IMG/VR virus record: IMGVR_UViG_3300042561_002062
Coordinates: 21,525 to 85,524 of that record
DNA: 64,000 bases
Strand: one strand, 5' to 3'
Source: a virus
Lineage: Duplodnaviria > Heunggongvirae > Uroviricota > Caudoviricetes
A model generated the notes under the pieces. It searched no databases. It was not told where the DNA came from and saw only the letters and a program-made list of their open reading frames with translations. Made by a program: the position numbers and the translations under genes. Shown here one piece after another: positions 10,301-42,923 of the stretch (within the stretch, counting starts at the first letter, position 1; the number at the start of each line of letters is the position of its first letter).

Positions 10301-11179
10301 TTATCTTTTAAGGTCTAGAGTTATTTTGTCACCAGCTACTTGAGCTACATCTCCTTTACCTGATTGGTTGGAAATTTTGTTCAAATGAGCTTTGATTGAT
10401 TCTCTTTCTTTAGTATCACTTCCTGCACTAGTTAAACCATCAGTTATTGTGCTGTTTAGGAAGTCTTGTAATCCACCCTCAATATTATCATCCAAGTCTA
10501 GAATATCAGAGTAATTTTGAAGTCCTTTGATACATTGAACTATCAAACCTTCATCTGGATTTATATTCATACCTTTAGCTTTTCTCAGTGAATTAGCTAA
10601 TTGATTTATAGTTTCTGTAGAGAGTCCATTTATAAGGAACTCGTTAACTTGTATTCTTCCATATCTTTCCCACCAATTTGGTTCTTTTTTGGTTGTATCT
10701 ATCCAATTTAAATCTGTTGTTGATGGTTTGTATTTTTGGTCATCAACAATCAACATAAGAGCTTTATCTTGTCTCAAATTACCACCAGCAGCAGTTTCAT
10801 TAAGTGTTTCAATAAGTAAATCTCTCATAGACTTCAATCTTCCCTCTGCTACTTGACGGTTGATGGTGCCACCACCTGTATGTGAAGTTCCAACTTCAAT
10901 TAAGAAAATTGGTGGAACTTTATTCGAATTAGAATCACCTAGAAATTTTATAAGTTGCCCGAAATTTTGAAATCTAGCGATCATCTTTTTAAGAGATTCT
11001 TTAAGACTTGTCTTCAAGTTTGCCGTAAGTTCAAATTTTCCTTCGCCGAACATAACGTCAATACCATGACCTTCACCAGTTAAAACTACTTCTTCACCAG
11101 GAACTGGTGCGGTTTCTGCTGATTGCACTTCTTCTTGAGCTTCCTTAATGAATCTCAAATAGTTTTTTATTCTTTTCAT
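10301..11179 (-). CDS. Hypothetical protein with capsid-targeting-like leader
   Basis: Starts MKRIKNYLRFIKE; TAATATATAC upstream. Confidence 0.65.
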   Translation of the reverse strand: MKRIKNYLRFIKEAQEEVQSAETAPVPGEEVVLTGEGHGIDVMFGEGKFELTANLKTSLKESLKKMIARFQNFGQLIKFLGDSNSNKVPPIFLIEVGTSHTGGGTINRQVAEGRLKSMRDLLIETLNETAAGGNLRQDKALMLIVDDQKYKPSTTDLNWIDTTKKEPNWWERYGRIQVNEFLINGLSTETINQLANSLRKAKGMNINPDEGLIVQCIKGLQNYSDILDLDDNIEGGLQDFLNSTITDGLTSAGSDTKERESIKAHLNKISNQSGKGDVAQVAGDKITLDLKR

Positions 11180-11188
11180 ATTATATGT

Positions 11189-11213
11189 TTTTTTTTGTAT
11201 ATATTATTTTTTT
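11189..11213 (-). promoter_or_regulatory. Putative late promoter AAAAAATAATATATACAAAAAAAA
   Basis: Near-identical 24-nt intergenic element repeated at about 13995-14020, each upstream of a leader-bearing gene. Confidence 0.55.
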
Positions 11214-11907
11214 AACTTGTTTTTTCTACTTTAGTAGGTGATATAGGTTTCAATGTGATAAAATCATCTAACTTTTCTCTTTTCTGCACTCCGTGTGGTG
11301 GTATGTGATCTCCTAATTTTTTTGATAAAACTTCTGATGTTATAGGACCATAAACACCATCGGAAGGTTTGATGTTGTTGTCCCGTTGAAACTGTATAAT
11401 AGCCCCTAGAGTAGAGCAACCATATTGACCATCTATACCATCTTTATTTGGTCCAAAATTACCGAGTATCTTTTTATATTTCCCACCATCTACTTGTGAA
11501 AGAGCTCTCTGTATTGTTTTTATTGATTCTATATCTTTACCTTGTGGAATATATTTTGATTTTGGAATAACACAATCTGTATCAATTAGTTTTATTGATA
11601 GTTTTTTTGTTGTATTATCGTCATATTTAAGATCCAGAATTACAAGATTATTGGATTTTTGAGAATTAACAAGGGTTCCCATTTTGTTGGTATTCATTTC
11701 TTTGAATCTAGTAACACCCTTATCATTTTTTGTGTAAAAATACCCATCCCAGATATTTTCTATTACAACTTTTATAGCTGTTATTTTTCCACTACGAGTA
11801 GTCCAGGTTTCTATATGCGCTTTTTGGTTTTCGAGTAGATTAATTAGACCATCATCAAAATTATGATAATCTTGTGAAAAATATTCAAACAATTTTATGT
11901 ATTTCAT
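11212..11907 (-). CDS. Peptidoglycan-binding domain protein with leader
   Basis: Starts MKYIKLFEYF; IQRAL...DGQYGCSTLGAIIQFQRDNNIKPSDGVYGPIT is a PG_binding_1 pattern. Confidence 0.8.
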   Translation of the reverse strand: MKYIKLFEYFSQDYHNFDDGLINLLENQKAHIETWTTRSGKITAIKVVIENIWDGYFYTKNDKGVTRFKEMNTNKMGTLVNSQKSNNLVILDLKYDDNTTKKLSIKLIDTDCVIPKSKYIPQGKDIESIKTIQRALSQVDGGKYKKILGNFGPNKDGIDGQYGCSTLGAIIQFQRDNNIKPSDGVYGPITSEVLSKKLGDHIPPHGVQKREKLDDFITLKPISPTKVEKTS

Positions 11908-11919
11908 ATAATTATTTTT

Positions 11920-13989
11920 TTATTCTTCTTTACCTACGAGCCACCTAGCGTAAGATTTAATATTTTCTTTTCTCCTTTCTCTTCTCTCCTTTTTATCAGA
12001 TTTATTTTTTTCTTCTTCATCTTTAATTTCTTCTTCTGAATCTTGAGACTCATTTTCTGCAGGTAAAGTTTCTAGATAGCTCTCTAAATAATTCCTAAAA
12101 TCAGGATCTCCAGTTTTTTCATATAAAGCTTCTATCGTCTTTTGATCTAATCTTCCAGAATCTTTAAGGTTATTATTTCTCTGAAATTCAGAAAGTGGCC
12201 AACTATAATCAGCAAATTTCATATTTTCATCTGCCGGCAAATCTATTGATGAGTCTATACTATCTAGAATTTTCCAGACTACTGTATTTATATCAAGTTG
12301 TGAAGGCAGCAAAGAATTTCTGTCTATTTCAGTAGTTCTTACAACTTCTGCTATATCTGATCTCTCTTCACTAGTAAGGTCGCCATAGGTAGGATCATTT
12401 TCATCCATAAGATCTGAACCACTACCCTCTATATTATCCATCATTTCTTCTATTTGTTCATCTGTGAGATTGTCTAATTGTTTAGCATCTTCAATTGTCA
12501 TTTCCTCATCTTGTTCTGATGCATTTTCTTCACTATCCTTAGAATCAAATATTGGACCTAGAAGAAACTTATAGAGCGCGGCGAATGGTTTGAATAGTGC
12601 GGCATTTAGTTTGATAGCATTTTCATGTGTTTTATAAAAAGTTTGAACAAAATCTGATTTATCTATTTCTTTTATAAAACTATTATTAACTTGAGTATCG
12701 ACCCAATATCTTTTATAAGCATCTAGATCCGAACCACTTAATTCCCTACCTCTTAATGCTCCTGAAGGATAAACAGGTTTATCGTATTTACCAGAAGACA
12801 TAGCATCATCAAATTGTTTTTCCCAGAAAGTTTTTAATTCACCACGCATAGCCGAGTTTGTGCCAGGTCCAGAACCTCTACCAACTACAACACGAGCTTT
12901 ATTAGATCCTTTATTGAGATCCATCAAAACAAATTCATCTGAATTCATTTTTACACCCCCTGTTCTAAATAATTTATTACTTCCACCTCTACTAGATTTT
13001 ATTATACCTTTTTCTGATTGTAGTGCTGAAAATTTTTCAAAGAGATTATCAAACAATCCAATTTTTTTAGTTCTTGGAAAACCCGGGAGCCTACGAAGAA
13101 AGGCTTTATATAATCTACCTAATGTATTTTGAGAAACAAATTTTATGACTTTTAAAGGTATTTTTACACCATATTTTACAAAACTAGAACTACTTCCTGC
13201 TATTATTTGTTTCAATTTTCTGAATGGCCAAAGAGCCATGTCCAGCATACGTTTGAAAAAACCTTTAATATTCGACAATACTGTTTTCAAAAAAGGAAAC
13301 TTATCTACACGTTCTTTTAACCAGTCTTCAAATTTTCTCATCCAACTTTTAGAACCACCACTACTTATTTCATCACCTAATTCCTTCTCGACTGTATCGA
13401 AATTCTTTGACACCAAATCTACGAATTTTTTTAGCGATTGATTCTTGGAAAGGTACTCAGATATAACCTTTGCAGAAGCGCCTGAACTTAGCCTTTTCAA
13501 TAATTCTCTGAATGGCTTAGAAATAGCTTTGAACAGGAATTGAATTGGATTCAAAGCAGGATGTGCGAATAATAAAGTTATCATACCAAAGGTAACATAT
13601 TCACTTCTTTTTTCTGGGTCTTCAACAAAATATGATTGAAGAAAATAAACACCCGCATGAAAAATATCAATAGCGGCACCGACGCCGGGATAGATAAAAT
13701 CTCCAACAATACCTCCTACGTCAGCAACAGTATGTAAAATATTTTCCAAAGACCAATCACCATCCGATGTTGTTCCAGTAGCGGTTTTGAGACCATTCCA
13801 GAAACTACCTAATCCACCAGACAAATCATCCCAAGCTTCCCCTGCCCAACTCAAAACTGATTCGTTAATATCTTCAAATTGATATCTATTTTCCAGATAT
13901 TTGAGAGATGAAATGTTTTCTCTATAAGATGTTTGATTCTCAAAGATGTATCCTTCTCTAAACTGATCAAATCTTAAAATATTACTCAT
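11920..13989 (-). CDS. Large leader-bearing protein with hydrophobic Gly-rich hairpin and C-terminal PG-binding-like motif
   Basis: Starts MSNILRFDQFRE; VGGIVGDFIYPGVGAAIDIFHAGVY; FQRNNNLKDSGRLDQKTIEAL. Confidence 0.6.
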   Translation of the reverse strand: MSNILRFDQFREGYIFENQTSYRENISSLKYLENRYQFEDINESVLSWAGEAWDDLSGGLGSFWNGLKTATGTTSDGDWSLENILHTVADVGGIVGDFIYPGVGAAIDIFHAGVYFLQSYFVEDPEKRSEYVTFGMITLLFAHPALNPIQFLFKAISKPFRELLKRLSSGASAKVISEYLSKNQSLKKFVDLVSKNFDTVEKELGDEISSGGSKSWMRKFEDWLKERVDKFPFLKTVLSNIKGFFKRMLDMALWPFRKLKQIIAGSSSSFVKYGVKIPLKVIKFVSQNTLGRLYKAFLRRLPGFPRTKKIGLFDNLFEKFSALQSEKGIIKSSRGGSNKLFRTGGVKMNSDEFVLMDLNKGSNKARVVVGRGSGPGTNSAMRGELKTFWEKQFDDAMSSGKYDKPVYPSGALRGRELSGSDLDAYKRYWVDTQVNNSFIKEIDKSDFVQTFYKTHENAIKLNAALFKPFAALYKFLLGPIFDSKDSEENASEQDEEMTIEDAKQLDNLTDEQIEEMMDNIEGSGSDLMDENDPTYGDLTSEERSDIAEVVRTTEIDRNSLLPSQLDINTVVWKILDSIDSSIDLPADENMKFADYSWPLSEFQRNNNLKDSGRLDQKTIEALYEKTGDPDFRNYLESYLETLPAENESQDSEEEIKDEEEKNKSDKKERRERRKENIKSYARWLVGKEE

Positions 13990-13994
13990 AAAAG

Positions 13995-14020
13995 TTTTTT
14001 TTTTGTATATATTATTTTTT
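13995..14020 (-). promoter_or_regulatory. Putative late promoter (second copy of the 24-nt element)
   Basis: gtatatatta at 14005-14014 with same flanks as 11197-11206. Confidence 0.55.
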
Positions 14021-14352
14021 CAATCTAACAATCCTTCAACTGCTATCAGATAGGCGTCTTCGTAGGTTGGGGCAATACCGTCTGAGCTTGCAAAAATGAA
14101 TTGTGGATGTCCATCTTCTCCTCTTAGAAAATATTCAATTGTTACTTGAATTTGACCTCTATTATTTTTGAATGATTTTATCTGACAATCTCTACTCATT
14201 AAGTAGTCTTCTTCATAGACAAGTAACTTATTTTCTCTATCAAATTTTCTAAAATCTGATTTAGTTCCTATACCTCTTGTTTTCGTATATTTTTCTTCGA
14301 AATCGCGCTGTGTAATATCTTCGTTGGTTGTGAATGGTTTGATGTGTTTCAT
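14020..14352 (-). CDS. Hypothetical protein with leader
   Basis: Starts MKHIKPFTTNE. Confidence 0.6.
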   Translation of the reverse strand: MKHIKPFTTNEDITQRDFEEKYTKTRGIGTKSDFRKFDRENKLLVYEEDYLMSRDCQIKSFKNNRGQIQVTIEYFLRGEDGHPQFIFASSDGIAPTYEDAYLIAVEGLLD

Positions 14353-14355
14353 AGT

Positions 14356-15168
14356 TTAATAAAATGACATTTTTCTAAGGTCGTTAAATGTTGTAAGAAG
14401 GTAACTAACTTCCTTTTTTGTTGATTTGAATAAAATATCAACGATGTAGCAGGTATAATGAGGTGTTGTGGGTGTTATCGGCACAATATTTCTAGTTGTT
14501 ATGTTTATCGGGGCCGATATCTTATAAATAGTAATGGTTTTACTTGAAGTAGTCCAATATTTGGAACCCTGGTTTCCGGGCAAACTATTAGGCCCCTTCA
14601 AACTGGGTGTTTCCTCTGAATACATTCTATCACTTATAATTCTAGTCATATGTGAGAGTTCATTTTCAATCATAGGTATAACTCTGGAAGCATATAAAAT
14701 CTCTTGTCTTTTTTCTTTTGAGATAATAAATTTATTCGAGGCATTGTTGTAAAATTCTGATTCCCAGTCTCCTTCCTCTTCTTGTGTGGATGAAGAAGGA
14801 TACGAAGGTGTTGTTGGTTTTGCTGTTTGCCAGGCGGTCGATGATGGTGAGTTCTTAGCGGTCGATGCTGCTGGATAGGTATAAGACCCCGGATTATAAC
14901 TATAAGAATAGGTTCTTGGGCTAAATTTAGCTAAAAGATAAAAAACATTCTTATCTTCTCGAATAGAAACTTTACAATCGTGATTTCTTAGAGAGCCAAA
15001 GCACATATCATCTAGAACCTTGAAAGTTTTTTCTAAATATTCAACATTCTCTTCTTCAAGAAAATAGATTTGTATCCACCATTCTTTATCAATAGCAATC
15101 ACATCGAATTCTTCTATATTAGCTCTTTCGAGATCTAATTTTATTTTATCTTCTATTTCTGTAGTCAT
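14356..15168 (-). CDS. Hypothetical protein with S/T/P-rich linker
   Basis: 270 aa ORF in operon; low-complexity centre. Confidence 0.6.
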   Translation of the reverse strand: MTTEIEDKIKLDLERANIEEFDVIAIDKEWWIQIYFLEEENVEYLEKTFKVLDDMCFGSLRNHDCKVSIREDKNVFYLLAKFSPRTYSYSYNPGSYTYPAASTAKNSPSSTAWQTAKPTTPSYPSSSTQEEEGDWESEFYNNASNKFIISKEKRQEILYASRVIPMIENELSHMTRIISDRMYSEETPSLKGPNSLPGNQGSKYWTTSSKTITIYKISAPINITTRNIVPITPTTPHYTCYIVDILFKSTKKEVSYLLTTFNDLRKMSFY

Positions 15169-15184
15169 TTATAGTCTCTTTTCA

Positions 15185-15946
15185 TTATTTTTTTAATAAC
15201 TCCATAGCTTCTTTGTCTTTCTTTCTTATTTGGTTGAGAACATATAAAATTTTTGTGTATCTCACTTTTCCATCATCACCCTTAATTTCTTCACCACCTA
15301 ATATTTTGTATAGATTATCAACTTGACTTGGATAAATTAGTTTTAATACTTCTTTATTTTTATAATCTTTGAAAGTATTGACAAAACTCCAATCTTCTTC
15401 GATTAAATCGACAAATAACTTCATTTTTTTTATCCATTGTTTGGAATATTCGTTAGCCCAATTATTCAATTCAGAATTTCCTGCTTTTTTCCAAGCCTCT
15501 TGTAATATTCCTGGTCTTTGAGTTACATCTTGAATACATCTATCTAGAAGTGTAACATAATCCATAGACGAATAAACGATAGTCTTATAAAAAGATTTAC
15601 AGATCACATCTCCACTTTTACCACCTTCCCATTCATAATCAAATCTCTTCTTCCAATTCATTATACATTCAGAAGTTAAATCATCCCATTCACCATTGGA
15701 TAACCCATTATAACCAGTTACCCTAACTCTATTTCGCATATAGCTCTGTATTTCAGCTATAAGTGCTTCATAAATATTTGAAGATTTAGTTTCGGAACGT
15801 GTAATGGTAAGTTTATCATTATAAGAATTCTCCAATACTCTCCACCAAGAAATATTATCATTAGAGGCGTAATAATATTCTTCCTTAATTGATCTTAGTG
15901 GGGATTTAAGATTTTCGTTTTTGAAATTATTGAAATGTTTTATCAT
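15185..15946 (-). CDS. Hypothetical protein with leader
   Basis: Starts MIKHFNNFKNE. Confidence 0.6.
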   Translation of the reverse strand: MIKHFNNFKNENLKSPLRSIKEEYYYASNDNISWWRVLENSYNDKLTITRSETKSSNIYEALIAEIQSYMRNRVRVTGYNGLSNGEWDDLTSECIMNWKKRFDYEWEGGKSGDVICKSFYKTIVYSSMDYVTLLDRCIQDVTQRPGILQEAWKKAGNSELNNWANEYSKQWIKKMKLFVDLIEEDWSFVNTFKDYKNKEVLKLIYPSQVDNLYKILGGEEIKGDDGKVRYTKILYVLNQIRKKDKEAMELLKK

Positions 15947-17148
15947 ATATGATTAGTGAATTGTTTGAAACTATGAATTTTTTTGGATTCTTTAGTAAGT
16001 TCGTATTTGATCTCGTATCTATATTTTCCGTCTGGTAGCTGGTAAGCTTTTTGGTCAATAATTTTTTTAGTCCTACCATCTATACCATCAAGTTTATTAT
16101 ATTTCTGCATTGCTTTTCTTTGAGCTGCAGCTTGATCTTTTGATGTATCTTCTAAAGTTCCAACAGAAGAATTTTTATCTTCTTTTTTCTCTTGTTGCTG
16201 ACCTGGTTGATTATTTTGATTATCTGCTTTTTCTTTTTCTACATACTTTACTGCTGGTTTATAGATAAGTGCTTGTGCGAATTCTTCAACCTTTTTCAAA
16301 GTTTCGGGAGAGACTTCAACACCTTTCAATTTGAACCTTTTACCAAGTCCAAATAGTCCTCTTTTCTTTAGTTGACCAGCATAATAAAAGTGTAAAAAAT
16401 AACTTAAATGATTATTTTCTTTAAGTGGAACATCTTCTGTGCATTCATTTGACTCTGGAATAAATTTGTAGTAGTGAATTTTATCACCTCTTTTTATTTG
16501 ATTGTCCTTTTGATTTTTCAATGAGGGTGCCCCGGCTTCTAGACCAGCACCTTTAAAATATAATTCCAAAATTCTACTATCATTATCGCTGATAGGCAAT
16601 TTAGACTTAACTACTATATCTACTTTTTTGACGTATTTAGAATTTCTATCATCTCTGTAATTTAGGTAAATATCACCACTCTTCACCATTTCTAAAATAG
16701 TATTATCTACTGATTTTTCATCACCAGAAGAAAACATCTTAGATTCTTCAGTTTTTTGAGCTTGTGCTTTTGGTTTTTCAGATGAAGGTGTTGTTGGTGT
16801 GGTGGTTGTTGGTGTCGTGGTTGTTGGTGCGTTGTTGTTAGTTGCTGGTGTTGCCCCTGCTGTTTTTTCTTGAGCTTTTTCACCTGATTCTTGGCATTCT
16901 TTCCTTTTTGGCGCATCAGAAGTTCTGGCATTGGGAAACTCTTTATCTAATATACAGATAGATTTTTGATATTTTTCTATAAAATCTTCACCTGATATGT
17001 TGTACCATTTTTTTGTTCCTTTTCTTTTAGCGTGCCAATTATCTGAAACTACTTTATATTCGAAAGGGTCACCTGCTCTAGTGTATATTTTAGATTCTTC
17101 AACCTCTTCGTTTATAGATCTCAAGAAATCATTCCATTTACTTATCAT
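15943..17148 (-). CDS. Hypothetical protein with leader and Thr/Pro-rich tract
   Basis: Starts MISKWNDFLRSINEE; APTTTTPTTTTPTTPSS; TAATATATA upstream (17166-17174). Confidence 0.65.
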   Translation of the reverse strand: MISKWNDFLRSINEEVEESKIYTRAGDPFEYKVVSDNWHAKRKGTKKWYNISGEDFIEKYQKSICILDKEFPNARTSDAPKRKECQESGEKAQEKTAGATPATNNNAPTTTTPTTTTPTTPSSEKPKAQAQKTEESKMFSSGDEKSVDNTILEMVKSGDIYLNYRDDRNSKYVKKVDIVVKSKLPISDNDSRILELYFKGAGLEAGAPSLKNQKDNQIKRGDKIHYYKFIPESNECTEDVPLKENNHLSYFLHFYYAGQLKKRGLFGLGKRFKLKGVEVSPETLKKVEEFAQALIYKPAVKYVEKEKADNQNNQPGQQQEKKEDKNSSVGTLEDTSKDQAAAQRKAMQKYNKLDGIDGRTKKIIDQKAYQLPDGKYRYEIKYELTKESKKIHSFKQFTNHI

Positions 17149-17183
17149 ATAGATTTATTTTTTTTTATATATTAAAATTTTTA

Positions 17184-18380
17184 TCAGAAATCTGTATCTA
17201 TTTCGACATCTATTTTGTACTTCTTCGATAAATCTTGTAATCTAAACTCAACAGTATCGTAAAGGTCAAAATTACCCCTCATTTTCTCGATAATTTTACC
17301 CAACAATTCTCTATCTATTCTGTCTATCTGATTTTTGTAATACTGCTTAGCTGATGGATTGGCATAATTATAACCATCGACTTTTGTCTTGAGTGGATCG
17401 AATATATTTTTTTTCATATAGATTCTTTGTGCTTCCAACCAATTGGCAGCTGCGGTGTCGTCATCATTGAGTGTACCTTCAAATGAGCTCCAAACATCTT
17501 TAGAACCATCTTTAAAAAGCCCATCAATTAATAAAACTATATTCTTCAGGGCTACAAATATATCTGATGGGTCTAATTCTTTTACGTCAGCAGCAGCCGC
17601 TTCTTTTGCTTTTTTCCACGCTTCTTTGTCTACGGAGATGTATTTATCTTCACTTGATGGTGGGTCTCCAACACCAAAGTCGGCATCAACATCAATTTCA
17701 TAACTAGTTTCCCCTGTTTTATCTAACCATAGATATCTGTTATCACCACTAAGTGTGGCTTTTCTTAGTTCTGGCCAGACTTCTGTCAATAATTTTATGC
17801 CTACCATTTGATGATTCTTATTTTTGGAATTTCCAGAATCTATTGCACTTTGTATAAATTTTAAATCTTTACCTTTTTCTTTAGCTTGTATTAGTCCGTA
17901 GTTTTCACCATCTATAGTTATTGTAATATGTTTTGATATCTTTTCAGTTACATTACCATACCACCAACTATTTTTATCAAATTGATTTTTTCCGAAAAAA
18001 GCTTCTACGGCCTCTTCTTCTTTATCATGACGTATAAGAAAAGTAAAAATACTTGTCCATGCGCTAACGGCATATGGTCTGAAAAAATATTCGGAACTCG
18101 ATTCGTCATAAGATTTATTTATACTAGAAAAAATCTCATTCAAAATAGTATCCAGACCTTCATTAGAGGGTTCAGTTTTTGTTTCATCACTCTTCTTATT
18201 ATCAGATTTACTGTTTTCTGAACTTGATTGAGTTTCTTTTGTTTCACCAGATACTTCTTTTTCTTCCTCTGCTGCTTTGTCTATCCAATCAGCAGGTTTA
18301 GGATCGAAAGCTGGAATTTCTCCTAAATTTTCACCTTCTATTTCTTCTAAGAAAAGTCTATATTTTGCAAGATATCTCAT
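17184..18380 (-). CDS. Hypothetical protein with leader
   Basis: Starts MRYLAKYRLFLEE. Confidence 0.65.
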   Translation of the reverse strand: MRYLAKYRLFLEEIEGENLGEIPAFDPKPADWIDKAAEEEKEVSGETKETQSSSENSKSDNKKSDETKTEPSNEGLDTILNEIFSSINKSYDESSSEYFFRPYAVSAWTSIFTFLIRHDKEEEAVEAFFGKNQFDKNSWWYGNVTEKISKHITITIDGENYGLIQAKEKGKDLKFIQSAIDSGNSKNKNHQMVGIKLLTEVWPELRKATLSGDNRYLWLDKTGETSYEIDVDADFGVGDPPSSEDKYISVDKEAWKKAKEAAAADVKELDPSDIFVALKNIVLLIDGLFKDGSKDVWSSFEGTLNDDDTAAANWLEAQRIYMKKNIFDPLKTKVDGYNYANPSAKQYYKNQIDRIDRELLGKIIEKMRGNFDLYDTVEFRLQDLSKKYKIDVEIDTDF

Positions 18381-18389
18381 AATTTTTTT

Positions 18390-19070
18390 TTATTTTTTTG
18401 GGATAGTTCCCTTTATTTTATTTCCAGATGGATCTTCTCCCCAACCTTTTGGTTGGCCCTGATAATAATACATACTCGATAAAAATTCTCCATTTTCATA
18501 CCATCTCCAAATTCCTTCTCTTTTTCCAGAATTAATTATACCTTCTTCTGAAATTTTACCTCTAGTATCAAACATACGAACTCGGTATTTATCAGGTTTC
18601 CCATCCTCAAATTCTTTACTCATCTTACGACCATCCCTATAAAAAGTATCTCTACGGATAATAGTTCCATCTTCCCAATCCTCAACTTCTTTCTCAATCG
18701 GTCCAGTTTCAAAAGTTGTTACTACCAATCCATCCAACTTATCATTTACATAATATTTTTTTGTTTGAGATTTATTTTCATAATTCCATTCCTGCCAAAG
18801 TAAAATTTTATTGTTATTTGCATCATATTTTCCCCTTTTTATCGGTAATTTATTGCCTTTAGAATCTACTATTGTTTTATGGTAAGTTGTTTCTACTCTT
18901 GTTTTTTTGTTAAATTCAACTGGATTGCCCTCACTATCTTTAGAATATTCAATATCCGGATTTGTAGTATTTGGGTCATTAGCTTCTGATTCTAGAACTG
19001 ATAATCTGGAGGTAGGTCTAGGTTCTCCAAAAGTTTTGTTCCAAATATACCAATTTGTTAAAAATTTCAT
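18390..19070 (-). CDS. MORN-variant repeat (YwqK-like) protein
   Basis: Repeated G..eG.W..Y.ENG-type units (GKREGIWRWYENGEF, DKLDGLVVTTFETG); likely start ATG 19070. Confidence 0.7.
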   Translation of the reverse strand: MKFLTNWYIWNKTFGEPRPTSRLSVLESEANDPNTTNPDIEYSKDSEGNPVEFNKKTRVETTYHKTIVDSKGNKLPIKRGKYDANNNKILLWQEWNYENKSQTKKYYVNDKLDGLVVTTFETGPIEKEVEDWEDGTIIRRDTFYRDGRKMSKEFEDGKPDKYRVRMFDTRGKISEEGIINSGKREGIWRWYENGEFLSSMYYYQGQPKGWGEDPSGNKIKGTIPKK

Positions 19071-19688: not shown

Positions 19689-20000
19689 ATGAAATCTATA
19701 CAAAAAACTAAATACTTTTTCGGTTGGGAAAACTGGAAATGGCTTATCAAAGAACTAGTTCATATCTATACAAATAAATCTAGTTTTTTCTCTAAAAAAA
19801 GAATTGAATCCAGTATTGCTTTTATTATTGGTCAGGTTGGTATGTTGTGGTTTTTATACGAACATATCCCCCAGTTAACTATATCAGATATTGTTTTATG
19901 GTCAGGTGTTGAATTTGCGATGGCTGGGTATATTGTAAATCAAATACAGAAAGAGAAAAAAACTGAAACTGTGGAAGAACCAAAACCAGAAGATATTTAA
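19689..20000 (+). CDS. Small two-TM membrane protein (holin candidate)
   Basis: Two hydrophobic segments and charged C-terminus, abuts peptidase gene. Confidence 0.4.
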   Translation: MKSIQKTKYFFGWENWKWLIKELVHIYTNKSSFFSKKRIESSIAFIIGQVGMLWFLYEHIPQLTISDIVLWSGVEFAMAGYIVNQIQKEKKTETVEEPKPEDI

Positions 20001-20989
20001 GTATTCGGTCTAGATGGTTGCTGTTTGAGTTTAGGTAAAAGTGTTGAACTATTAAGATTTCTAAATCTAGAGATGTTAGGTGCAGTTGGTTTTGAAATTA
20101 TTTTAGATGGTTGAACTCCGGTAGTTGTGGGCCCAGGGGGTTTTGTTAAGTATTCACTACTTTCAAAAGTGCCACCACTATCTAAAATATTCTGTAAATC
20201 TTCTTTTGTAAAATCACCTAAATATCGAGCAGGGAGAGGTTTGTCCTGAACTACTGGACCCGATGAAGATTTTACAGGTCGGTATTCCCAGTGCCACCAC
20301 TCATCGGTTGATTTGAAATCTCTAAGAACACTCGGGTTTACCCATCCACATTTTGGAGCGTTTTCAAAAAACCATCTATATACTGGATGTTTAAAAGCCG
20401 AGGCAATCAAAGAACGATTTCTATTCATCGAAGGTGGAACCCCCCAATGTATATCAACGGCTAAACCCCAACCATGATTCGATCGGCCAGCTCTTGCTGC
20501 ATTTCTAGTTTTTTTTCTAAGTGCTACCTGTCTTTCTAGACTTCGATAGGCATCTGTAAAAAAAAGTGGTTGCTTACCATCAAACTTAGCTTCTTCATAT
20601 AACTTCATGAGTTTATCCAACGCCTTTGAAGCGTCGAGCATTAGATAGGGAGCATCCCCTCCTAGATCTTTTGAAAGATGTTCATTTTTGACCATTTTAT
20701 CAAGTGGAACTCTTCCATTTCTAAAGTTTCCTACTGTTAGTGTTTTTATGCCATTTTCATTGATAGTATCCAAAATATAGTTCACGGGTATCTTATCGTT
20801 TGTGTATTCTGGGATGCCTGTTACTGATCTCTTTTTCAATTTGAATTTTGGGGGAGAGATCTTCGTAAGTGGATTCTTTAGAGTGATATTTGGTTTGAGA
20901 CCACCGAGAGCTTTTGTCGGATCAAAAGAATTAACGAGATTTTGTATCATTCGGATTATTCTTTTTTTGTGTAGTTGACCAATTGTCAC
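19997..20989 (-). CDS. M15-family (VanY-like) peptidoglycan peptidase
   Basis: AYRSLERQ, SNHGWGLAVDI (SxHxxGxAxD), EWWHWEY. Confidence 0.85.
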   Translation of the reverse strand: MTIGQLHKKRIIRMIQNLVNSFDPTKALGGLKPNITLKNPLTKISPPKFKLKKRSVTGIPEYTNDKIPVNYILDTINENGIKTLTVGNFRNGRVPLDKMVKNEHLSKDLGGDAPYLMLDASKALDKLMKLYEEAKFDGKQPLFFTDAYRSLERQVALRKKTRNAARAGRSNHGWGLAVDIHWGVPPSMNRNRSLIASAFKHPVYRWFFENAPKCGWVNPSVLRDFKSTDEWWHWEYRPVKSSSGPVVQDKPLPARYLGDFTKEDLQNILDSGGTFESSEYLTKPPGPTTTGVQPSKIISKPTAPNISRFRNLNSSTLLPKLKQQPSRPNT

Positions 20990-21701
20990 CCTTCTGATCT
21001 AAACTTTCTCTTTGCTGCTCTTTTATCGTTCTATTTGTTGGAACTCTCACGTGGTTGGATAAAAACTTATCTAATCGTAATGCTTGATATTTTAATAATA
21101 CTTCAACAATATTTGGTAGAGGAACCACTGGACCAGCAGCGTTTGAATAGGGGCTAGACAAAAGTGCGTTAACCAAACTATCCATCCAATCCATAAAATC
21201 AGTTCCTAATACAACTTGTTGATCGGCATCAGGGCTTCCAAGATTGAGTTTAGCTAAGTTATCTCTAAGATTGACATTGATATTTCCATTTTTTGTAATA
21301 TTAATATTTGAGAATTCATGATCTATTTTAAGACCCTCTGACTCACTTCGATAGATTTGTGTTTTATCATCTAAAAAAAGAGCCTTGAATGTAGGATAAT
21401 CTGATTGCTTCAGACTTTTGAGTTTATTTTCTAGATTGATATTGAAGTGCTCGGCATAGATATATTCAGGTAAGTAGGGATTACCCTGATCGAATACAAC
21501 CGACACTATTTTACCCACATCTGGGGCTGAAAATTCATTACCATTCAGATCTTTCCAAGGTGTAGCCCAGGGTATATTTTCGGTAGCTATATTTTCAAAA
21601 TAGAGTGGTATTCTTACTTTAACTCGACCAAGTCTTTTGGGATCGTTGTTGTCTTCTACAACACCTAAAAAAATCTTATTTGATATCTCTGGATTATGCA
21701 T
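20931..21701 (-). CDS. Baseplate spike gp5-like protein (N-terminal OB fold)
   Basis: GVVEDNNDPKRLGRVKVRIP...PWA...PDVGKIVSVVFDQGNPYLP; TATAAATA upstream. Confidence 0.88.
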   Translation of the reverse strand: MHNPEISNKIFLGVVEDNNDPKRLGRVKVRIPLYFENIATENIPWATPWKDLNGNEFSAPDVGKIVSVVFDQGNPYLPEYIYAEHFNINLENKLKSLKQSDYPTFKALFLDDKTQIYRSESEGLKIDHEFSNINITKNGNINVNLRDNLAKLNLGSPDADQQVVLGTDFMDWMDSLVNALLSSPYSNAAGPVVPLPNIVEVLLKYQALRLDKFLSNHVRVPTNRTIKEQQRESLDQKGDNWSTTQKKNNPNDTKSR

Positions 21702-21717
21702 TTGTTTCCATATCTAT

Positions 21718-23994
21718 TTATAGAGATGTTCCCCTTTGTGAAGATGAAGAACTTGGTGTAAGATTTGAAACAAAAGGATTGACCCTTGTTGAAGAATTAG
21801 CTGATTGTGGTATTCTAGATGCTGGAATTTGGCGTGAATTTGTATTACCTAAAAAAGAACCTATTCTTCTTCTTACATAAATATTTCTTGGAGCTGTAAT
21901 TTGTGAAGCTCTTAGACGACTAATTGTTCTAGATGCAGTTGGTCGATAAATACTAGTTTTTCTGAAAGGACCTCCTTGTCTTTGCGGTAGAAAACCATTA
22001 TTCGCTTCTGAGGTATTGACTGGTCTTGAGAAAAATCTACCTAGACTTCTACCAACGAATCCTCGAACTGCATTTGAGAGTTCGTTTCGAAGTCGATTAC
22101 CAGGATTATAGACATTTCTGGGATTTTGAATAGTATTCAAAGAAATTTGAAGTTCTGATCTACTCAACCTTTCATTTATAGCTTTATTCACTAAATTGAA
22201 TCTTGATGATATTTCTCTGTTTATGGCATCTGCTCCTGCTCTTACAACATTACCAACTAAATTTCTTACCAATCCACCAACAAAACTATTAGCCAAGTTT
22301 CCTAAATTTGCTCTACCCAAAGGACTTCTATCTCGATCATTGAGTGGATACCCCGATTTTGGATACTTATCAATTTCTATAGTAGTTTGTATAGGATCCA
22401 AAAAAGATATACTCGAAAGTCTTCTAAGAGACTCTGGTGTTTGTTCAGTATTTTCAAAACTTTCATTTAGGGTATCTTGACTTGCGATCAAAGCTCTACC
22501 AGTATCAAGAGATCTAAGTCGTTTTGGATCTATAAATTCATCGTTGTATCTTGTCTTTGTGAAATAGGGATCTTTATTTCCATTGAAATTAAATTTATGA
22601 AACTCAGAGCTAACAAATTTATAGTTGAATGATATAGAAAAATTTGATACCGGAGTTAGTTGATCATTCATTCTAATCCCATTTCCATGAGTTAGTTTAT
22701 TGAATGAAAACTCACATTCATATAAGTTATATTCTTTTTTTGAAATTAAATCATTTAAAACTTTATACTGGTCATCTCTTAGTGGAATTCTCGGAGGAAC
22801 AACACGATTGTAGTTTCTAACCTCGGATATAATAATTCTACAATTGAATCTAAGTAGATTTTGTGGAATAATTCTTCTACCTTCTATTCTTGATCTTGAT
22901 AATGTATTATAAAGATACGAAAGATAGGATATATTCTGCTCAACATCTTCATTCATAAATAATTCTATTTTATCACTAGGAAAATTTGTGAATAGTTTTG
23001 GCCCCTCTGAACCTGTTTCTTCTCCTTTTACATGACCAAATTTATCTAAACCTGTTATTTGTGTAATATAATAATTTTTAATGGAATTATTGCTCTCTGT
23101 GTTTTGAAGAAAATTAACGTTTGTTTGAAAAAATTTCTTAAACTGAGCAACGAATTCTTCGTATATTTCTTTTCTTGAAGAAATCTCTGAAATACTATTA
23201 TCTCCTGAACCATATTTGTTTATGAAATCAAGTATAGAACCATTGAATAGTGGTGATGTTACCTCGTCTATTTCGATGTCAAATCCTAGAATTGTTGGAT
23301 CTTCATTTCCGGTTATAGTCTTTGTAAAACTTTGTAGAGGTATAACACCTTTTGGACTTTGAAGTCCAGCATGTGTTTCTAAATCATTATCACTTATTTT
23401 TTTGAATACATGATCTATCTCTAAAACTTTTGAATTTTCATTTAGACCGAAACTGAATTTTTTAGTTCTAGGATCTCTTCTACCAAGAATATCCTTTCGA
23501 TAATCGAGAGCATTTGGAATAGTAAGAAGATAGTTATCACCGAAACTTTCTGGTCTAAAAGCCATGGGTTGCTGGCCTCTAGTTATTTCTATTTCTGTAT
23601 TGATTCCGTATTTTTCGAAAGGTCTCCAAGTTTTGGATCTTTCACCATTTTTTTTATTCAAAAAAGCGTAAGGTGGTGTAAAACCAGGTGGGTGACTTTT
23701 GGATGAATATTTTGTATTTTCGTAAGGCCACTTTTTTACTGAAATAGCATCGATAGAATCACCACCAAATAGACGACCTCTGAAAAGATTGTTAAATGTT
23801 CTAACACCCTCTCCAACAACCTGCCCAGCGGATCCAGGATGACCTTTGCGCTCTCCACGACCAGTGAAAAGCCCACCAATAGTTCGAGCTAATCTCGAAT
23901 TGCCGAAGTTGATACCTACACGAGGTAGAATACCACGATTATTACCAAAAAGATTTAGAGAATTGGTGTTACGATTGAATTGAAATACCGGCAT
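21718..23994 (-). CDS. Hypothetical virion (tail/baseplate) protein
   Basis: 758 aa inside baseplate operon; R/N/G-rich termini. Confidence 0.55.
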   Translation of the reverse strand: MPVFQFNRNTNSLNLFGNNRGILPRVGINFGNSRLARTIGGLFTGRGERKGHPGSAGQVVGEGVRTFNNLFRGRLFGGDSIDAISVKKWPYENTKYSSKSHPPGFTPPYAFLNKKNGERSKTWRPFEKYGINTEIEITRGQQPMAFRPESFGDNYLLTIPNALDYRKDILGRRDPRTKKFSFGLNENSKVLEIDHVFKKISDNDLETHAGLQSPKGVIPLQSFTKTITGNEDPTILGFDIEIDEVTSPLFNGSILDFINKYGSGDNSISEISSRKEIYEEFVAQFKKFFQTNVNFLQNTESNNSIKNYYITQITGLDKFGHVKGEETGSEGPKLFTNFPSDKIELFMNEDVEQNISYLSYLYNTLSRSRIEGRRIIPQNLLRFNCRIIISEVRNYNRVVPPRIPLRDDQYKVLNDLISKKEYNLYECEFSFNKLTHGNGIRMNDQLTPVSNFSISFNYKFVSSEFHKFNFNGNKDPYFTKTRYNDEFIDPKRLRSLDTGRALIASQDTLNESFENTEQTPESLRRLSSISFLDPIQTTIEIDKYPKSGYPLNDRDRSPLGRANLGNLANSFVGGLVRNLVGNVVRAGADAINREISSRFNLVNKAINERLSRSELQISLNTIQNPRNVYNPGNRLRNELSNAVRGFVGRSLGRFFSRPVNTSEANNGFLPQRQGGPFRKTSIYRPTASRTISRLRASQITAPRNIYVRRRIGSFLGNTNSRQIPASRIPQSANSSTRVNPFVSNLTPSSSSSQRGTSL

Positions 23995-24040
23995 AGTTTT
24001 ATTACTATTATATATTTAGATTCTAATCATTCAGTTAAAA

Positions 24041-25360
24041 TTATCTACTTTCTAAATCTGATAAAGTAAGATCTCTTCTTGATAGATGAATTATTTGTAT
24101 CATTCTACCGGACGAGTATTCGAATTTTATATTTGTTATTAAATAATTACCAGTAAGTCTTTCGTTCAAAATACTATTGAAAGCGTCCGATGTTAAGTTT
24201 ATAAATACAACCTTTATTTTTTGAAATACATACAAAGAAAAATTTGGATTAGGTAGGTTAGCAATTACGGTAATTTTTTCTAATTCTTGTAGATTTCTAT
24301 TATTTAGAAAATCAGCGTAATTATAATTTGGATGCATATTATCAATATCTAATTTACCAATATATTCTTGAGTAAAATTACTCTTATAAAATTCTTTACC
24401 ACCAGGTCCAGGACTTTTAAGTGATACTAGATTTTTTTGATTGGTATTATCTGTTAGGGTATCTAATTCAAATATTAATTTTTCTTTCTTTTGATTATCG
24501 TAATAAAAAACGGTTTTAAGATACCCCTCTTGTATAGATATACTTGTTGAATTATTCAATATAGAAAAATCTTCGATGTATAGATTACTATGACTAATTG
24601 ATTTATCGGTAGTTAATTGTGCTGGTATTTTCAGAGGTGGTGATTTTTGATCAACAACAGCTTCTGGCAAAAAATTATCTTGAATTACTTCATCATTTGT
24701 AACATCTCGTAATAATTCTTTTTGAATATTAACATAATTTAAATTATAGTAATAATCAATATAATAAGAGCAAAAATCATTATCTGAAATATAACCATTG
24801 TTCGCAACATATTTAAGAAATTGATAGACTTTTCTACCATAATTCAACCAATTCATTCTATCGTTAGTAACATTGATGTTTGAGCTGAATCCTAGTCCTA
24901 GTTGTTTTGATACTTTTTTAAGAACATCGATAGATGAAGATTTAGGAAAAGATTCATAGTTTAACGTGTAAAGATCATCTATATCTATAGCACCTTTCAA
25001 TGTAAAAACCAATCCAGACTCTCTTTTTACGTTAATTATTTTAAATTGAATAAAAATAGTTCGAGATTCATCAGATCTACTATTGATAAAAACTTTAAGT
25101 TTTGTATTATCAATTGGAAATCCTCTCTGGCCGATAACACCGGTTGTATCGTTAAAAGTTATTTTAACTTGTGGTATGTTTTCCTTGAGAAATAATTGAA
25201 AATAAATTAGATCTTTTTGACCAATTTGAAGTTCGTTATAATATACCAGGGGAATATATCCTAAATGTTGAATAAATTCTTTTCGAACACCCCCATCTAC
25301 TGGAAAAGGTAGTTCGATTTCTTTTGGTCGATTGGTGCTTCTAAAAATATTTGTAAACAT
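24041..25360 (-). CDS. Baseplate hub-like protein (gp27/gp44-like)
   Basis: Position between gp53-like and gp5-like genes; C-terminal LTGNYLITNIKFEY typical of hub proteins. Confidence 0.6.
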   Translation of the reverse strand: MFTNIFRSTNRPKEIELPFPVDGGVRKEFIQHLGYIPLVYYNELQIGQKDLIYFQLFLKENIPQVKITFNDTTGVIGQRGFPIDNTKLKVFINSRSDESRTIFIQFKIINVKRESGLVFTLKGAIDIDDLYTLNYESFPKSSSIDVLKKVSKQLGLGFSSNINVTNDRMNWLNYGRKVYQFLKYVANNGYISDNDFCSYYIDYYYNLNYVNIQKELLRDVTNDEVIQDNFLPEAVVDQKSPPLKIPAQLTTDKSISHSNLYIEDFSILNNSTSISIQEGYLKTVFYYDNQKKEKLIFELDTLTDNTNQKNLVSLKSPGPGGKEFYKSNFTQEYIGKLDIDNMHPNYNYADFLNNRNLQELEKITVIANLPNPNFSLYVFQKIKVVFINLTSDAFNSILNERLTGNYLITNIKFEYSSGRMIQIIHLSRRDLTLSDLESR

Positions 25361-25362
25361 AT

Positions 25363-25818
25363 TTATTCTCTATTTCCTATTACAATTACACCATCACGAT
25401 CAACAACTTGTTGAACAGGTCTCGTATTAAAGGTTGGATTAGTTGATTTATTGAGATAATCAAGTCTATTGGAATCTGGTCTAGTTCCACGATTGAGATT
25501 TTGTAGAAATTCAATTCTTGTTCTATCATCAGCTGAAATTTTTAAACTATCTACCAGAGATATATCCACATATTTAATTCTATCACCTGATTTAATATTG
25601 AGAGGGTTATCAATGTTATTAAAATACATTAAAAAACCTACCTGATCTACATTATTATAAATAGAATTACAAACCAAATCGATTCTCATTTCTTCTGTTC
25701 TATCAACTATGTATTCAAAAAAAGGAACATCTGGACCGTAATCAAAAGTTCTCTGATCGAGATCATATTCATCTCCTGTTTTTTGTAAAATACTAAGATC
25801 GTAAATATTCATCTCCAA
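25363..25818 (-). CDS. Baseplate wedge gp53-like (LysM-type) protein
   Basis: EEMRIDLVCNSIY...LMYFNNIDNPLNIKSGDRIKY. Confidence 0.75.
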   Translation of the reverse strand: MEMNIYDLSILQKTGDEYDLDQRTFDYGPDVPFFEYIVDRTEEMRIDLVCNSIYNNVDQVGFLMYFNNIDNPLNIKSGDRIKYVDISLVDSLKISADDRTRIEFLQNLNRGTRPDSNRLDYLNKSTNPTFNTRPVQQVVDRDGVIVIGNRE

Positions 25819-26071
25819 CTAATATTTTTTTTCTACTAGGCCTAGAAGATACTGGTTGAACATATTCTCCTGTTTTCGGATAGAATATTCCATTTCTATA
25901 TATGCCTGTTGAGTTGAGTCTATTTTTTATTCCTGAAAGTTCTTGTTCGACCGAAGATTTATTTGAGTATATTTCTATAATTTCTTGCTGTCCGAAATTA
26001 TTTCTTACTACAATTCTAATATCATCAGGATTTGTTACTACCTCATAAAAATATACAACTTGAATTAGCAT
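25793..26071 (-). CDS. Hypothetical protein
   Basis: Short ORF filling gap in the baseplate operon. Confidence 0.45.
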   Translation of the reverse strand: MLIQVVYFYEVVTNPDDIRIVVRNNFGQQEIIEIYSNKSSVEQELSGIKNRLNSTGIYRNGIFYPKTGEYVQPVSSRPSRKKILVGDEYLRS

Positions 26072-26085
26072 AATCTGGATTTAAT

Positions 26086-28440: not shown

Positions 28441-29910
28441 ATGAAAAAATTACGAAGATTAAACGAGGAATATGCAAGTCCTAAAATTCCAGTATCAGAA
28501 AGTTATTGGCTAAAAAGAGGAAAAATTGGAAAAGTCGTAGCTCTTTACACACACGACGATATGGATGGTATATTCTCAGCTATAGAAGTAAAGAAATATC
28601 TTTTAGATAAAGGATTTGAGATAAAAAAATACGGAATCCTAAATTATTCTGAAGGTTGGAGATATACTACACTCGATCCGGCGCTTATAAATATTGTTCT
28701 GGATTTTGCTAATATGCCTGGTGATGATAGAGATGATTTGATTGATTATTATCTAGATCACCATGGACTCTTTTCTGAAGAGCAGCTACAAAGATATAAA
28801 AAATCACCGGTTCAGAAAAAGAAAACTGGTTCAGCCTACGAGGCTATTTGTGATGCGCTAGGTGTTCGTAAAGATGAAATGATATTATCTGTTATTGATA
28901 TGATAGATTCGGCTAAATACCAAGATTATGGTATATCCTGGCAAAGACTACTAGACTATAATGTTCAAGATATGATAGCTTCTCCTAAAAGAAGACTTGA
29001 GTTTGCAGCTGCTTTTAATCAATTCTTGAAAAGATCCGATACCCAAACTCTTATTGAGGTTATTCATAATACAAAAGATTGCTCGATTTTTGGAATTTTC
29101 CAAATGATGAAAAGACTATACCCCGAAAATAATACTCACACTTCAGGCACTAGAAGAGGCCAAGGTAAAGATTTTGTTGAAGATTCTATTGAAAGACAAT
29201 CTATTATGAAGGGAAGAACCAGAGGATCGAGTAATATTAAAAAAGTTTATACAGATTATAGAGATTTTCGTAGAGATTGGGCCCCTGATGGAACCGTCAC
29301 TAGAATAGATGGTTACCAAGCTATTGGTAATCTAGTTTTTGTGCCATCAGGAACCTGGGCAAACACCCTGAAAGCTCGTTCAATCATTCAAAAAGATTCA
29401 ACAGAATCACGTTTTGATCTTGAAAATTACGCGCCGAAATTCATACTTATTCAATACGGTGCTACTCTTCAAGTTTGTGCCTACAACAAAATAGAAGAAA
29501 CCGAAGATTTACCCATTCTCAAATCCGGTCAAAAAGTAGATAATCTAGGAAAGTATATGACTGATCTATTGAAGAATTTCCAAAAAGTTTTAGGGTATTA
29601 TGACCCTGATACTTCAACAGGCCAAGATGAAATCACCGTATCAGGTGGTCACGGTGGTATTGGAACTATCTCAAATATTTTTGGCCGTTGTAAAAACGGT
29701 GGTCCATTTGACGGTATGAAATGGCTCGATTTATTTAAGAATAAAATAATCTCTGATCTATCGGGAGTTCCCTTTGATATGAACTTGATCTGGAGTGGTG
29801 AAGATTCTAAAAACCTTCGTGAGCCAGAGATGGATAACAAGGTAAGGAATATTGAAGACGTGAAAAGAGTATCACCAGAAGGTCGTATTTTACGTTACGG
29901 TGAATTTTAA
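28441..29910 (+). CDS. DHH-family phosphoesterase-like protein with leader
   Basis: HDDMDGIFSA, LDFA, LDHH motifs; starts MKKLRRLNEE. Confidence 0.75.
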   Translation: MKKLRRLNEEYASPKIPVSESYWLKRGKIGKVVALYTHDDMDGIFSAIEVKKYLLDKGFEIKKYGILNYSEGWRYTTLDPALINIVLDFANMPGDDRDDLIDYYLDHHGLFSEEQLQRYKKSPVQKKKTGSAYEAICDALGVRKDEMILSVIDMIDSAKYQDYGISWQRLLDYNVQDMIASPKRRLEFAAAFNQFLKRSDTQTLIEVIHNTKDCSIFGIFQMMKRLYPENNTHTSGTRRGQGKDFVEDSIERQSIMKGRTRGSSNIKKVYTDYRDFRRDWAPDGTVTRIDGYQAIGNLVFVPSGTWANTLKARSIIQKDSTESRFDLENYAPKFILIQYGATLQVCAYNKIEETEDLPILKSGQKVDNLGKYMTDLLKNFQKVLGYYDPDTSTGQDEITVSGGHGGIGTISNIFGRCKNGGPFDGMKWLDLFKNKIISDLSGVPFDMNLIWSGEDSKNLREPEMDNKVRNIEDVKRVSPEGRILRYGEF

Positions 29911-42752: not shown

Positions 42753-42923
42753 ATGCAAAATGTTTATCTACTCAATTGGGAATCTTTTCTAGAAAAATGG
42801 ACGATGAAATATAAAAAATCCATCGATTGTAAAAATCCAAAAGGTTTCTCTCAAAAAGCTCACTGTCAGGCTAGAAAAAAGAGAAAAAGAGGATTGAAAA
42901 CCCTATCCAAAAAAGTTAGATGA
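42753..42923 (+). CDS. Unannotated 56-aa basic peptide with leader and C-x10-H-C motif
   Basis: Manual translation MQNVYLLNWESFLEKWTMKYKKSIDCKNPKGFSQKAHCQARKKRKRGLKTLSKKVR; TATATATA at 42739-42746. Confidence 0.7.
   Translation: MQNVYLLNWESFLEKWTMKYKKSIDCKNPKGFSQKAHCQARKKRKRGLKTLSKKVR

Follow-up and report, generated by a model that had tools for sequence, protein, structure and literature searches.

Why should a row of otherwise unrelated phage genes open with one and the same kind of short N-terminal leader? The question is raised by nine consecutive minus-strand genes at positions 10301-19133 of a stretch of viral DNA from IMG/VR record IMGVR_UViG_3300042561_002062 (Caudoviricetes). This stretch of 64,000 nucleotides, hereafter the window, comprises bases 62992-126991 of the linear, 142,003-bp record, which is referred to below as the contig (G000). 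An original prediction had proposed that the leader works like the capsid-targeting sequence (CTS) of T4 and loads diverse effectors into the phage head for delivery with the DNA. Our analysis leads to a similar answer: the leader is probably, with appreciable room left for other explanations, a tag of the T4 type for capsid targeting and processing, borne by a plastic group of head-cargo proteins.

A leader shared by eight of nine cassette genes

All nine open reading frames (ORFs) of the cassette are present as described (sizes in amino acids, aa):

10301..11179, minus strand: ORF1, 292 aa; leader MKRIKNYLRFIKE followed by A; no known family.
11212..11907, minus strand: ORF2, 231 aa; leader MKYIKLFE; PG_binding_1 domain at residues 145-194 (PF01471, E=6.6e-8).
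11920..13989, minus strand: ORF3, 689 aa; leader MSNILRFDQFRE/GYIFE/; conserved INE43; weak PG_binding-like C-terminal stretch.
14020..14352, minus strand: ORF4, 110 aa; degenerate leader MKHIKPFTTNE.
14356..15168, minus strand: ORF5, 270 aa; the sole leaderless gene of the cassette (MTTEIEDKIKLDLE).
15185..15946, minus strand: ORF6, 253 aa; leader MIKHFNNFKNE; second conserved site SIKEE/YYY at about residue 22.
15943..17148, minus strand: ORF7, 401 aa; N-terminus MISKWNDFLRSINEE; leader MISKWNDFLRSINE followed by E and then by a Thr/Pro-rich linker.
17184..18380, minus strand: ORF8, 398 aa; N-terminus MRYLAKYRLFLEE; leader MRYLAKYRLFLE followed by E; acidic disordered linker of about 70 aa; helical body.
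18390..19070, minus strand: ORF9, 226 aa from the ATG at 19070; leader MKFLTNWYIWNKTFGE; ATATATA element 15 nucleotides upstream.

The leader M-x-x-[IL]-[K]-[KR]-[FYW]-x-x-F-[ILV]-x-E opens eight of the nine genes, one more than the seven originally counted. The difference is due to ORF9, whose true start is most likely the ATG at 19070; from there it bears a leader like its orthologue in L134, a syntenic metagenome scaffold used for cassette comparison, which begins canonically with MKNILGWSSFLLES. Six of the eight leaders contain [FWY]-x-x-F, the second aromatic residue being missing in ORF4 and Trp in ORF9. The ending [ILFV]-x-E is found within residues 8-23 of seven of the eight tagged proteins, in ORF6 by way of the second site SIKEE; for ORF4 it is present in the orthologue only, which has the canonical leader MKNIKEFRLFE in L134.

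That the bodies behind the leaders are unrelated was borne out as well. Without their first 18 residues, the tagged proteins showed no BLASTP similarity, apart from a 750-aa paralogue pair outside the window and a weak PG_binding-like stretch in ORF2 and ORF3. Pfam and PHROGs returned nothing for seven of the nine cassette proteins, a protein atlas gave weak PG_binding leads for ORF3 and no usable lead for ORF5, and megablast and tblastn searches against GenBank phages with the cassette, ORF3 and ORF8 found no match. With respect to the cargo functions originally suggested, peptidoglycan (PG) binding does occur in the cassette; phosphoesterase- or nuclease-like cargo was not found among the tagged proteins screened, and the metallophosphatase-looking gene at 41247-41840 has no leader, as judged from its N-terminal sequence only, without a scan of family libraries. 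A Kyte-Doolittle scan detected no transmembrane segment in any cassette protein, and a role of ORF3 as a membrane-inserting ejection protein is therefore unsupported. In ORF7, the Thr/Pro-rich tract TTTTPTTTTPTTPSS separates the leader region from the body.

Enrichment on the contig and in related phages

Across the whole contig, 174 genes were called with a simple longest-ORF caller, and the regular expression [FWY]..F[LIVKR].?E matched the first 14 residues of 11 of the 174 proteins, compared with 1.45 expected from internal positions (P=3e-7). To avoid circularity, patterns defined from the cassette alone were then applied to the other 165 genes, the expectation being taken from internal windows or from 2,000 composition-preserving shuffles of the same N-termini. 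Between 7 and 9 of these 165 N-termini matched, versus 0.4-2.9 expected (P=5e-4 to 5e-6). The leader is thus enriched over shuffled N-termini, a check set by the original prediction, and it recurs elsewhere on the contig as claimed, the leader of an ORF at 54894 being weak and outside the strict patterns. A motif finder of our own, based on expectation maximization, was too permissive (log-likelihood 2-3 standard deviations above shuffles) and hence uninformative, so that the hold-out tests were relied on.

Related phages were accessible through a profile of the tagged 750-aa family (83 homologues), which led to 79 IMG/VR loci and was the sole profile or protein scan that worked; single-protein scans of IMG/VR with ORF3, ORF8 and a 758-aa baseplate protein retrieved no relatives. 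Three related contigs were fetched whole. G013 and G017 each share 28 of the 174 contig proteins at about 45% mean identity, including the DNA polymerase (58-60%), a helicase and a syntenic baseplate block. G008 shares only 8 proteins and was therefore used only as an independent motif set and for its head module. The cassette-derived pattern matched 22 of 208 genes in G008 (3.2 expected), 17 of 159 in G017 (2.4 expected) and 25 of 162 in G013 (2.1 expected; P=1e-19), and the tag is found on 8-15% of the N-termini in related phage contigs. In related loci totalling about 2 Mb and 2,527 genes, a stricter pattern that includes extra positions matched 199 genes, versus 2.8 expected, a 70-fold enrichment over internal windows. 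These 199 genes form 91 BLAST families; among 51 family representatives searched against Pfam, 45 had no domain, and the others included a T4-type RNA ligase, a GH108 lysozyme, a GIY-YIG nuclease, alpha/beta hydrolases and a methyltransferase.

When 79 leader matches were aligned on the second aromatic residue (position 0), positions left free by the regular expression turned out to be conserved too, i.e., I/L at -6 (84%), K at -5 (56%) and K/R at -4 (56%). The resulting consensus is M-K-x-[IL]-K-[KR]-[FY]-x-x-F-[ILV]-x-E, and all eight cassette leaders agree with it. Synonymous codons differ at the conserved Phe, Leu and Glu (TTT/TTC, four Leu codons, GAA/GAG), and the signal therefore lies in the protein, not in the DNA.

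These counts also bear on the simplest alternative, namely, that there is no dedicated signal and the similarity reflects common descent, AT-rich N-terminal composition or a preference in translation initiation. MK-rich starts are indeed common in a genome of 32% G+C, and one tagged pair are true paralogues, but counts as high as those observed hardly ever arise when the N-termini are shuffled with their composition preserved, the 70-fold enrichment among the 2,527 genes is left unaccounted for, synonymous codons vary, the bodies are unrelated, and the tags of orthologues are better conserved than their bodies. Composition and common descent are largely refuted, and an explanation of this kind is highly improbable.

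Residue-level match to the T4 capsid-targeting sequence

The T4 CTS, MKTYQEFIAE (PMC8442874), is located on IPI, IPII, IPIII and Alt and is removed by the prohead protease gp21 (PMC9026906, PMC3012670), which cleaves after L/I-x-E (PMC9026906). A suppressor analysis assigned targeting mainly to residues 4 and 7 (Y and F), and processing to residues 8 and 10 (I and E) (PMC9026906). All of these residues, Y4, F7, I8 and E10, coincide with the aromatic-x-x-F-[ILV]-x-E core of the leaders described here. Scored with a weight matrix built from the 79 leaders, MKTYQEFIAE lies within the top 0.009% among 164,594 internal windows. In a positive control with the same ORF caller and the strict pattern derived from the window, 3 of 268 T4 ORFs were recovered, i.e., IPII, IPIII and gp61.1. 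The T4 sequence is reportedly also the subject of a study by Mullaney and Black from 1996.

The third T4 hit, gp61.1 (AF158101, 18966-19130, minus strand), is a hypothetical protein of 54 aa that begins with MKTFKEFIKED and outscores the validated T4 CTS on the leader matrix. By its sequence, it may be an unrecognised CTS-bearing protein of T4.

Conservation, turnover and predicted structure

The tag and the protein behind it evolve differently. ORF1 and its L134 orthologue, which begins with MKKIKNYLTFLRE, are 71% identical over the first 14 aa and 30% over the rest, and among six tagged orthologue pairs there are four whose first 14 residues have diverged less than the body. Seven homologues of ORF3 have almost invariant first 32 residues at an overall identity of 31-53%, and IFE17 and INE43 are conserved in this family after the first Glu. 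In the ORF8 family, leader and body are conserved, whereas the linker between them (70-100 residues, acidic or rich in Ser/Gly) is hypervariable. In the tagged 750-aa (754-aa) family, E15 is invariant among 48 members and S16 is nearly so. Orthologues may also differ in the tag itself, which is absent from a contig protein (G000, 13038-14168) and present on its counterpart in G013 (51650-52804). The conservation of the tag over diverged bodies and its presence or absence in orthologues therefore indicate that it behaves as a separable, selected module on fast-evolving, exchangeable genes.

The gene order of L134 is baseplate, spike, VanY, two opposite-strand genes and cassette. Seven of the nine cassette genes have an orthologue on this scaffold; ORF2 and ORF7 are the two without. 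The most conserved member of the cassette is the leaderless ORF5 (81% identity to L134), which has no family match, compared with 26-48% for its tagged neighbours. On the best explanation, the cassette would be a plastic, fast-evolving set of tagged cargo proteins, some of them PG-binding and most without a known fold, and analogous to the polymorphic internal-protein loci of T-even phages.

AlphaFold2 models place the tag apart from the rest of the protein. For the N-terminal 330 residues of the 750-aa family the mean predicted local distance difference test (pLDDT) score was 89.6, residues 1-13 being below 50 and a confident fold starting right after LLE15/S16; in ORF8, residues 1-73 had a pLDDT below 50 and were followed by a folded helical body (residues 75-398). 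In these models the tag is unstructured and lies outside the predicted fold. The helical hydrophobic moment is higher for the leaders (0.52) than for other N-termini (0.38; P=2e-10), as would be expected of a free amphipathic helix. The ORF8 model had no match in BFVD by Foldseek, and comparison of the N-terminal domain of the 754-aa family with the PDB yielded only weak GNAT-like rows (E of about 1e-3, low TM).

An amphipathic leader could also serve a purpose outside the virion, i.e., as the recognition site of another phage enzyme, as a membrane-binding helix or as a stability or turnover signal in the infected cell. The very broad tagged set, which amounts to 8-15% of the genes and includes cytoplasmic proteins such as RNA ligase, methyltransferase and the polyphosphate kinase PPK2, would suit such a role. 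The leader is, however, far too short and too charged for a transmembrane or signal-arrest-release (SAR) segment, no partner enzyme co-occurring with the tag is known, no search aimed at one having been made, and a non-virion signal leaves unexplained both the match to the T4 CTS residues and the invariant Glu with the fold starting behind it. We therefore regard this alternative as unlikely.

A promoter-like element upstream of tagged genes

The leader genes are also set apart by their upstream regions, in agreement with the TATATA element noticed before: ATATATA lies within 45 nucleotides upstream of 14 of 21 leader genes versus 33 of 153 others (Fisher P=5.6e-5). The contig contains 59 copies, 42 of which are located in the intergenic 7.5% of the sequence. 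In the cassette, they delimit four units, starting at ORF9, ORF7, ORF3 and ORF1:

11198..11204, minus strand: AATATATAC(A)n promoter-like element upstream of ORF1.
14006-14012, minus strand: ATATATA upstream of ORF3.
17166-17172, minus strand: ATATATA upstream of ORF7.
19079-19085, minus strand: ATATATA upstream of ORF9.

The wider form, AATATATA(C)(A)n, is found 10-35 nucleotides upstream of many genes, with further copies in the window at 24009 and 27915; it is likely a phage promoter. The late promoter of T4 is TATAAATA, which the ATATATA element resembles. In the relatives, ATATATA precedes the genes for the major capsid protein, portal, TerL and protease, but about 40% of their genes overall have it as well, which marks it as a promoter-like element in general use by the phage and not as one proven to be late-only.

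Tagged genes elsewhere on the contig and the adjoining tail module

Apart from the cassette, the window contains the following features:

19997..27906, minus strand: tail/baseplate module (VanY peptidase, Phage_base_V spike, large baseplate proteins); adjoins the cassette and is syntenic with G013, G017 and L134.
28441..29910, plus strand: 489-aa protein with the shortened leader MKKLRRLNEE.
33048..33677, minus strand: 209-aa protein with the leader MKTLLGYQDFLES.
33705..35072, plus strand: 455-aa protein with the leader MLSNFELFLES; divergent from the preceding gene across one ATATATATA.
42753..42923, plus strand: 56-aa ORF with MQNVYLLNWESFLEK.
54894..55184, plus strand: 96-aa ORF with the weak leader MKKIKRLDFSKPLNES, outside the strict patterns.

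Orthologues of the 489-aa protein are 59% identical and begin with MKNIKQFNNFNLIKEE in G013 and MRIKKFNNWNSINEE in G017. Outside the window, the tag is found on a PPK2 enzyme, on a protein with PG_binding_1 and lysozyme domains and on the two 750-aa paralogues. The PPK2 polyphosphate kinase (E=6e-82; L001:4278-5369, plus strand) has the variant leader MKRIVKILESRFQEE and an N-terminal extension of 120 residues, and could be a packaged nucleotide-regenerating enzyme. The two paralogues (L002:9519-11783 and 11795-14047, minus strand) adjoin a tape-measure-like gene and are members of a large family confined to phages, with GTLGNSCMRY...YLDRIY motifs, of which the 642-kb phage LR756502 has six copies. 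The baseplate protein next to the cassette matches only uncultured "huge phages" of 630-735 kb at about 30% identity.

This neighbourhood suggests another alternative, in which the tag is a docking or sorting signal for a different part of the virion or of its assembly line, e.g., the lumen of the tail or baseplate or an assembly chaperone, and the cassette proteins are tail-associated factors for penetration of the cell wall. The cassette is kept directly downstream of the spike and VanY baseplate genes both here and in L134, the tagged 750-aa paralogues lie beside the tape-measure-like gene and a baseplate wedge gene, and ORF2 and ORF3 have peptidoglycan-binding features. On the other hand, the tagged genes of the relatives are scattered over the whole contig, some of them inside the head module, the motif at the end of the tag is one that a head protease cleaves, the residues for head targeting in T4 are matched, and the internal-protein genes of T4 are likewise not located beside head genes. 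A signal of this kind is quite unlikely.

Head genes and prohead protease of related phages

T4-type head genes are present in the relatives. Gp23-type major capsid proteins exceed the Pfam cut-off in G008, G013 and G017 (E of about 1e-28), and G008 has a Portal_T4 match with E=2e-60. An ORF of 705-736 aa with a gp21-like protease domain (GEFDHP...SSRAAG) is present in nine of the 17 large related records, G013 and G017 among them; the G008 protease matches phrog_207 at E=2e-30, and the Pfam S77 matches of the relatives' protease reach the curated cut-off in one record only. The gene adjoining this protease encodes a Gp23-type capsid protein, whose N-terminal propeptide can be aligned with the T4 gp23 propeptide and includes YAEFHSINE/N.

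The protease domain is fused to 11-12 tandem 14-residue repeats, NI[AS]YSEY[IL]AENLDK, and an acidic tail. This ORF of about 700 aa (L116:9274-11370 in G017, also in L007 and L093-L101) is conserved in many huge-phage contigs and looks like a protease-scaffold fusion built for cutting into 14-residue peptides; no description of such a fusion was found in the literature searched. Each repeat ends in [ILV]-A-E, and a dozen sites of this kind in the protease's own scaffold support the cleavage specificity implied by the leaders. The idea that the tag is itself a copy of the scaffold repeat was rejected: the two have in common only the coarse aromatic-x-x-aromatic-[ILV]-x-E, and the repeats score poorly on the leader matrix.

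The contig encodes replication genes, many sugar-modification genes, GroES and GroEL, a tRNA array and the tail/baseplate module. Its CheckV completeness is about 56% (G+C content about 32%), which would account for the absence of head genes, and the head module would therefore sit in the missing part. A 185-aa contig protein outside the window (L001:17506-18063, minus strand) has a Gly-rich segment of 45 residues with 53% identity to the N-arm of the gp23-like capsid protein of G017, and the matching segment directly follows the putative INE/N cut of the latter. This similarity hints that the missing capsid gene of the contig is of the same kind as that of G017. Small proteins in G013 (85826-86290) and G017 (2785-3084) likewise consist of a leader and a similar Gly-rich ..NASN.. 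stretch, as seen by eye and unaligned; together with the 185-aa protein, they may mimic the capsid N-arm and so become part of the capsid lattice. GroES and GroEL are also encoded outside the window (L002:17359-19283, plus strand), as judged from their N-terminal sequences only. Folding of T4 gp23 requires GroEL plus the phage co-chaperonin gp31.

Proposed function of the leader

Overall, the residue-level match to the T4 CTS, the conservation of the tag over diverged bodies, its position outside the fold, a promoter-like element common with head genes and a T4-type protease in relatives argue for head cargo, and the tagged proteins are probably a fast-evolving set delivered into the host with the DNA. 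The original prediction of a modular, T4-like head-cargo tag has thus stood with respect to motif, modularity and resemblance to T4; core binding, cleavage after the Glu, packaging, ejection and the cargo roles are what we infer from these lines of evidence, for a contig whose head genes are missing.

In the mechanism that we propose, tagged genes would be transcribed from ATATATA promoters that would also drive the head genes of the relatives. The first 12-16 residues would form an amphipathic helix with I/L at -6, an aromatic residue at -3, Phe at 0 and I/L/V at +1, and this helix would dock the protein onto the scaffolding core during prohead assembly. A prohead protease of the gp21 family would then cut after the Glu of the hydrophobic-x-Glu ending the tag, and the mature protein, free inside the head, would exit with the DNA at infection.

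Several observations weigh against this proposal. No match to the Gp23 capsid, T4-type portal, terminase or Peptidase_S77 was found on the 142-kb contig, and the protease therefore had to be taken from relatives that share only 28 of the 174 proteins. Some large related records, two rated >90% complete among them, yielded no S77 hit at E<=0.01. The scaffold repeats go unrecognised by the leader weight matrix, in part because the regular expression forced Phe or Trp at the second aromatic position. Within the cassette, ORF4 (TNE) and ORF6 (KNE) have no hydrophobic residue two before the first Glu, and the cassette as well as the two tagged 750-aa paralogues adjoin tail/baseplate rather than head genes. 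Finally, a tag on 8-15% of the genes, including RNA ligase, methyltransferase, GIY-YIG nuclease and PPK2, which are not obvious cargo, exceeds by far the share of about 1-2% in T4.

The last point could be turned into a broader, and in our view doubtful, idea: a CTS might serve as a general address label in a clade of large-to-huge T4-related phages, borne by about 10% of all proteins, which belong to at least 91 families and range from PPK2, RNA ligase, nucleases and lysozymes to many orphan folds, so that the virion would deliver an exchangeable protein set with the DNA. The tag would then co-assemble with a protease-fused scaffold of 11-12 cleavable 14-residue units, and the same cuts would release both cargo and scaffold.

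If the tag works as in T4, it would allow the proteins that uncultured large phages inject to be read from sequence alone. Dozens of fast-evolving proteins would come into view that act in the first seconds of infection, e.g., in wall passage, counter-defence and host take-over, and the packaging trick of T4 would be ancient, with a far wider use in huge phages. Virion proteomics and the engineering of protein delivery in phages of non-E. coli hosts would have direct targets in the short tag and in the conserved, turnover-prone cassette next to the baseplate genes.

Comparison with T4 and phiKZ-like phages

The leaders resemble the T4 CTS in being short N-terminal tags of about 10-16 residues on unrelated, fast-evolving proteins, with aromatic-x-x-Phe at the targeting positions and an [ILV]-x-Glu end that fits the gp21 rule, and the nearest relatives of the contig have gp23-, gp20- and gp21-type head genes. 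They differ from it in their longer consensus, with an extra [IL]-K-[KR] ahead of the first aromatic residue, and in their number, i.e., 8-15% of genes and at least 91 families versus a handful in T4. Moreover, the tag often precedes a long disordered acidic linker or secondary cleavage-type sites, and the protease of the relatives is fused to a repeat scaffold, whereas gp21 and gp22 are separate proteins in T4. In the literature searched, the CTS is described only for T4 and its close relatives and long propeptides for phiKZ-like phages; no description of an expanded tag was found in it.

In phiKZ (gp175), 201phi2-1 and SPN3US (gp245), a gp21-related protease cuts the N-terminal propeptides of many internal head proteins after Glu, and these propeptides are thought to target the proteins to the prohead (PMC5694885, PMC9026906). 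Membership of the leaders in this long-propeptide type was considered and rejected. The propeptides of phiKZ-like phages are mostly >100 residues long and end in S/A/G-x-E, whereas the leaders have 8-16 residues, and the position two before the Glu is occupied by I, F, V or L in 57 of 79 and by S or A in only 3 of 79. The cleavage specificity implied by these sequences is therefore T4-like and not phiKZ-like.

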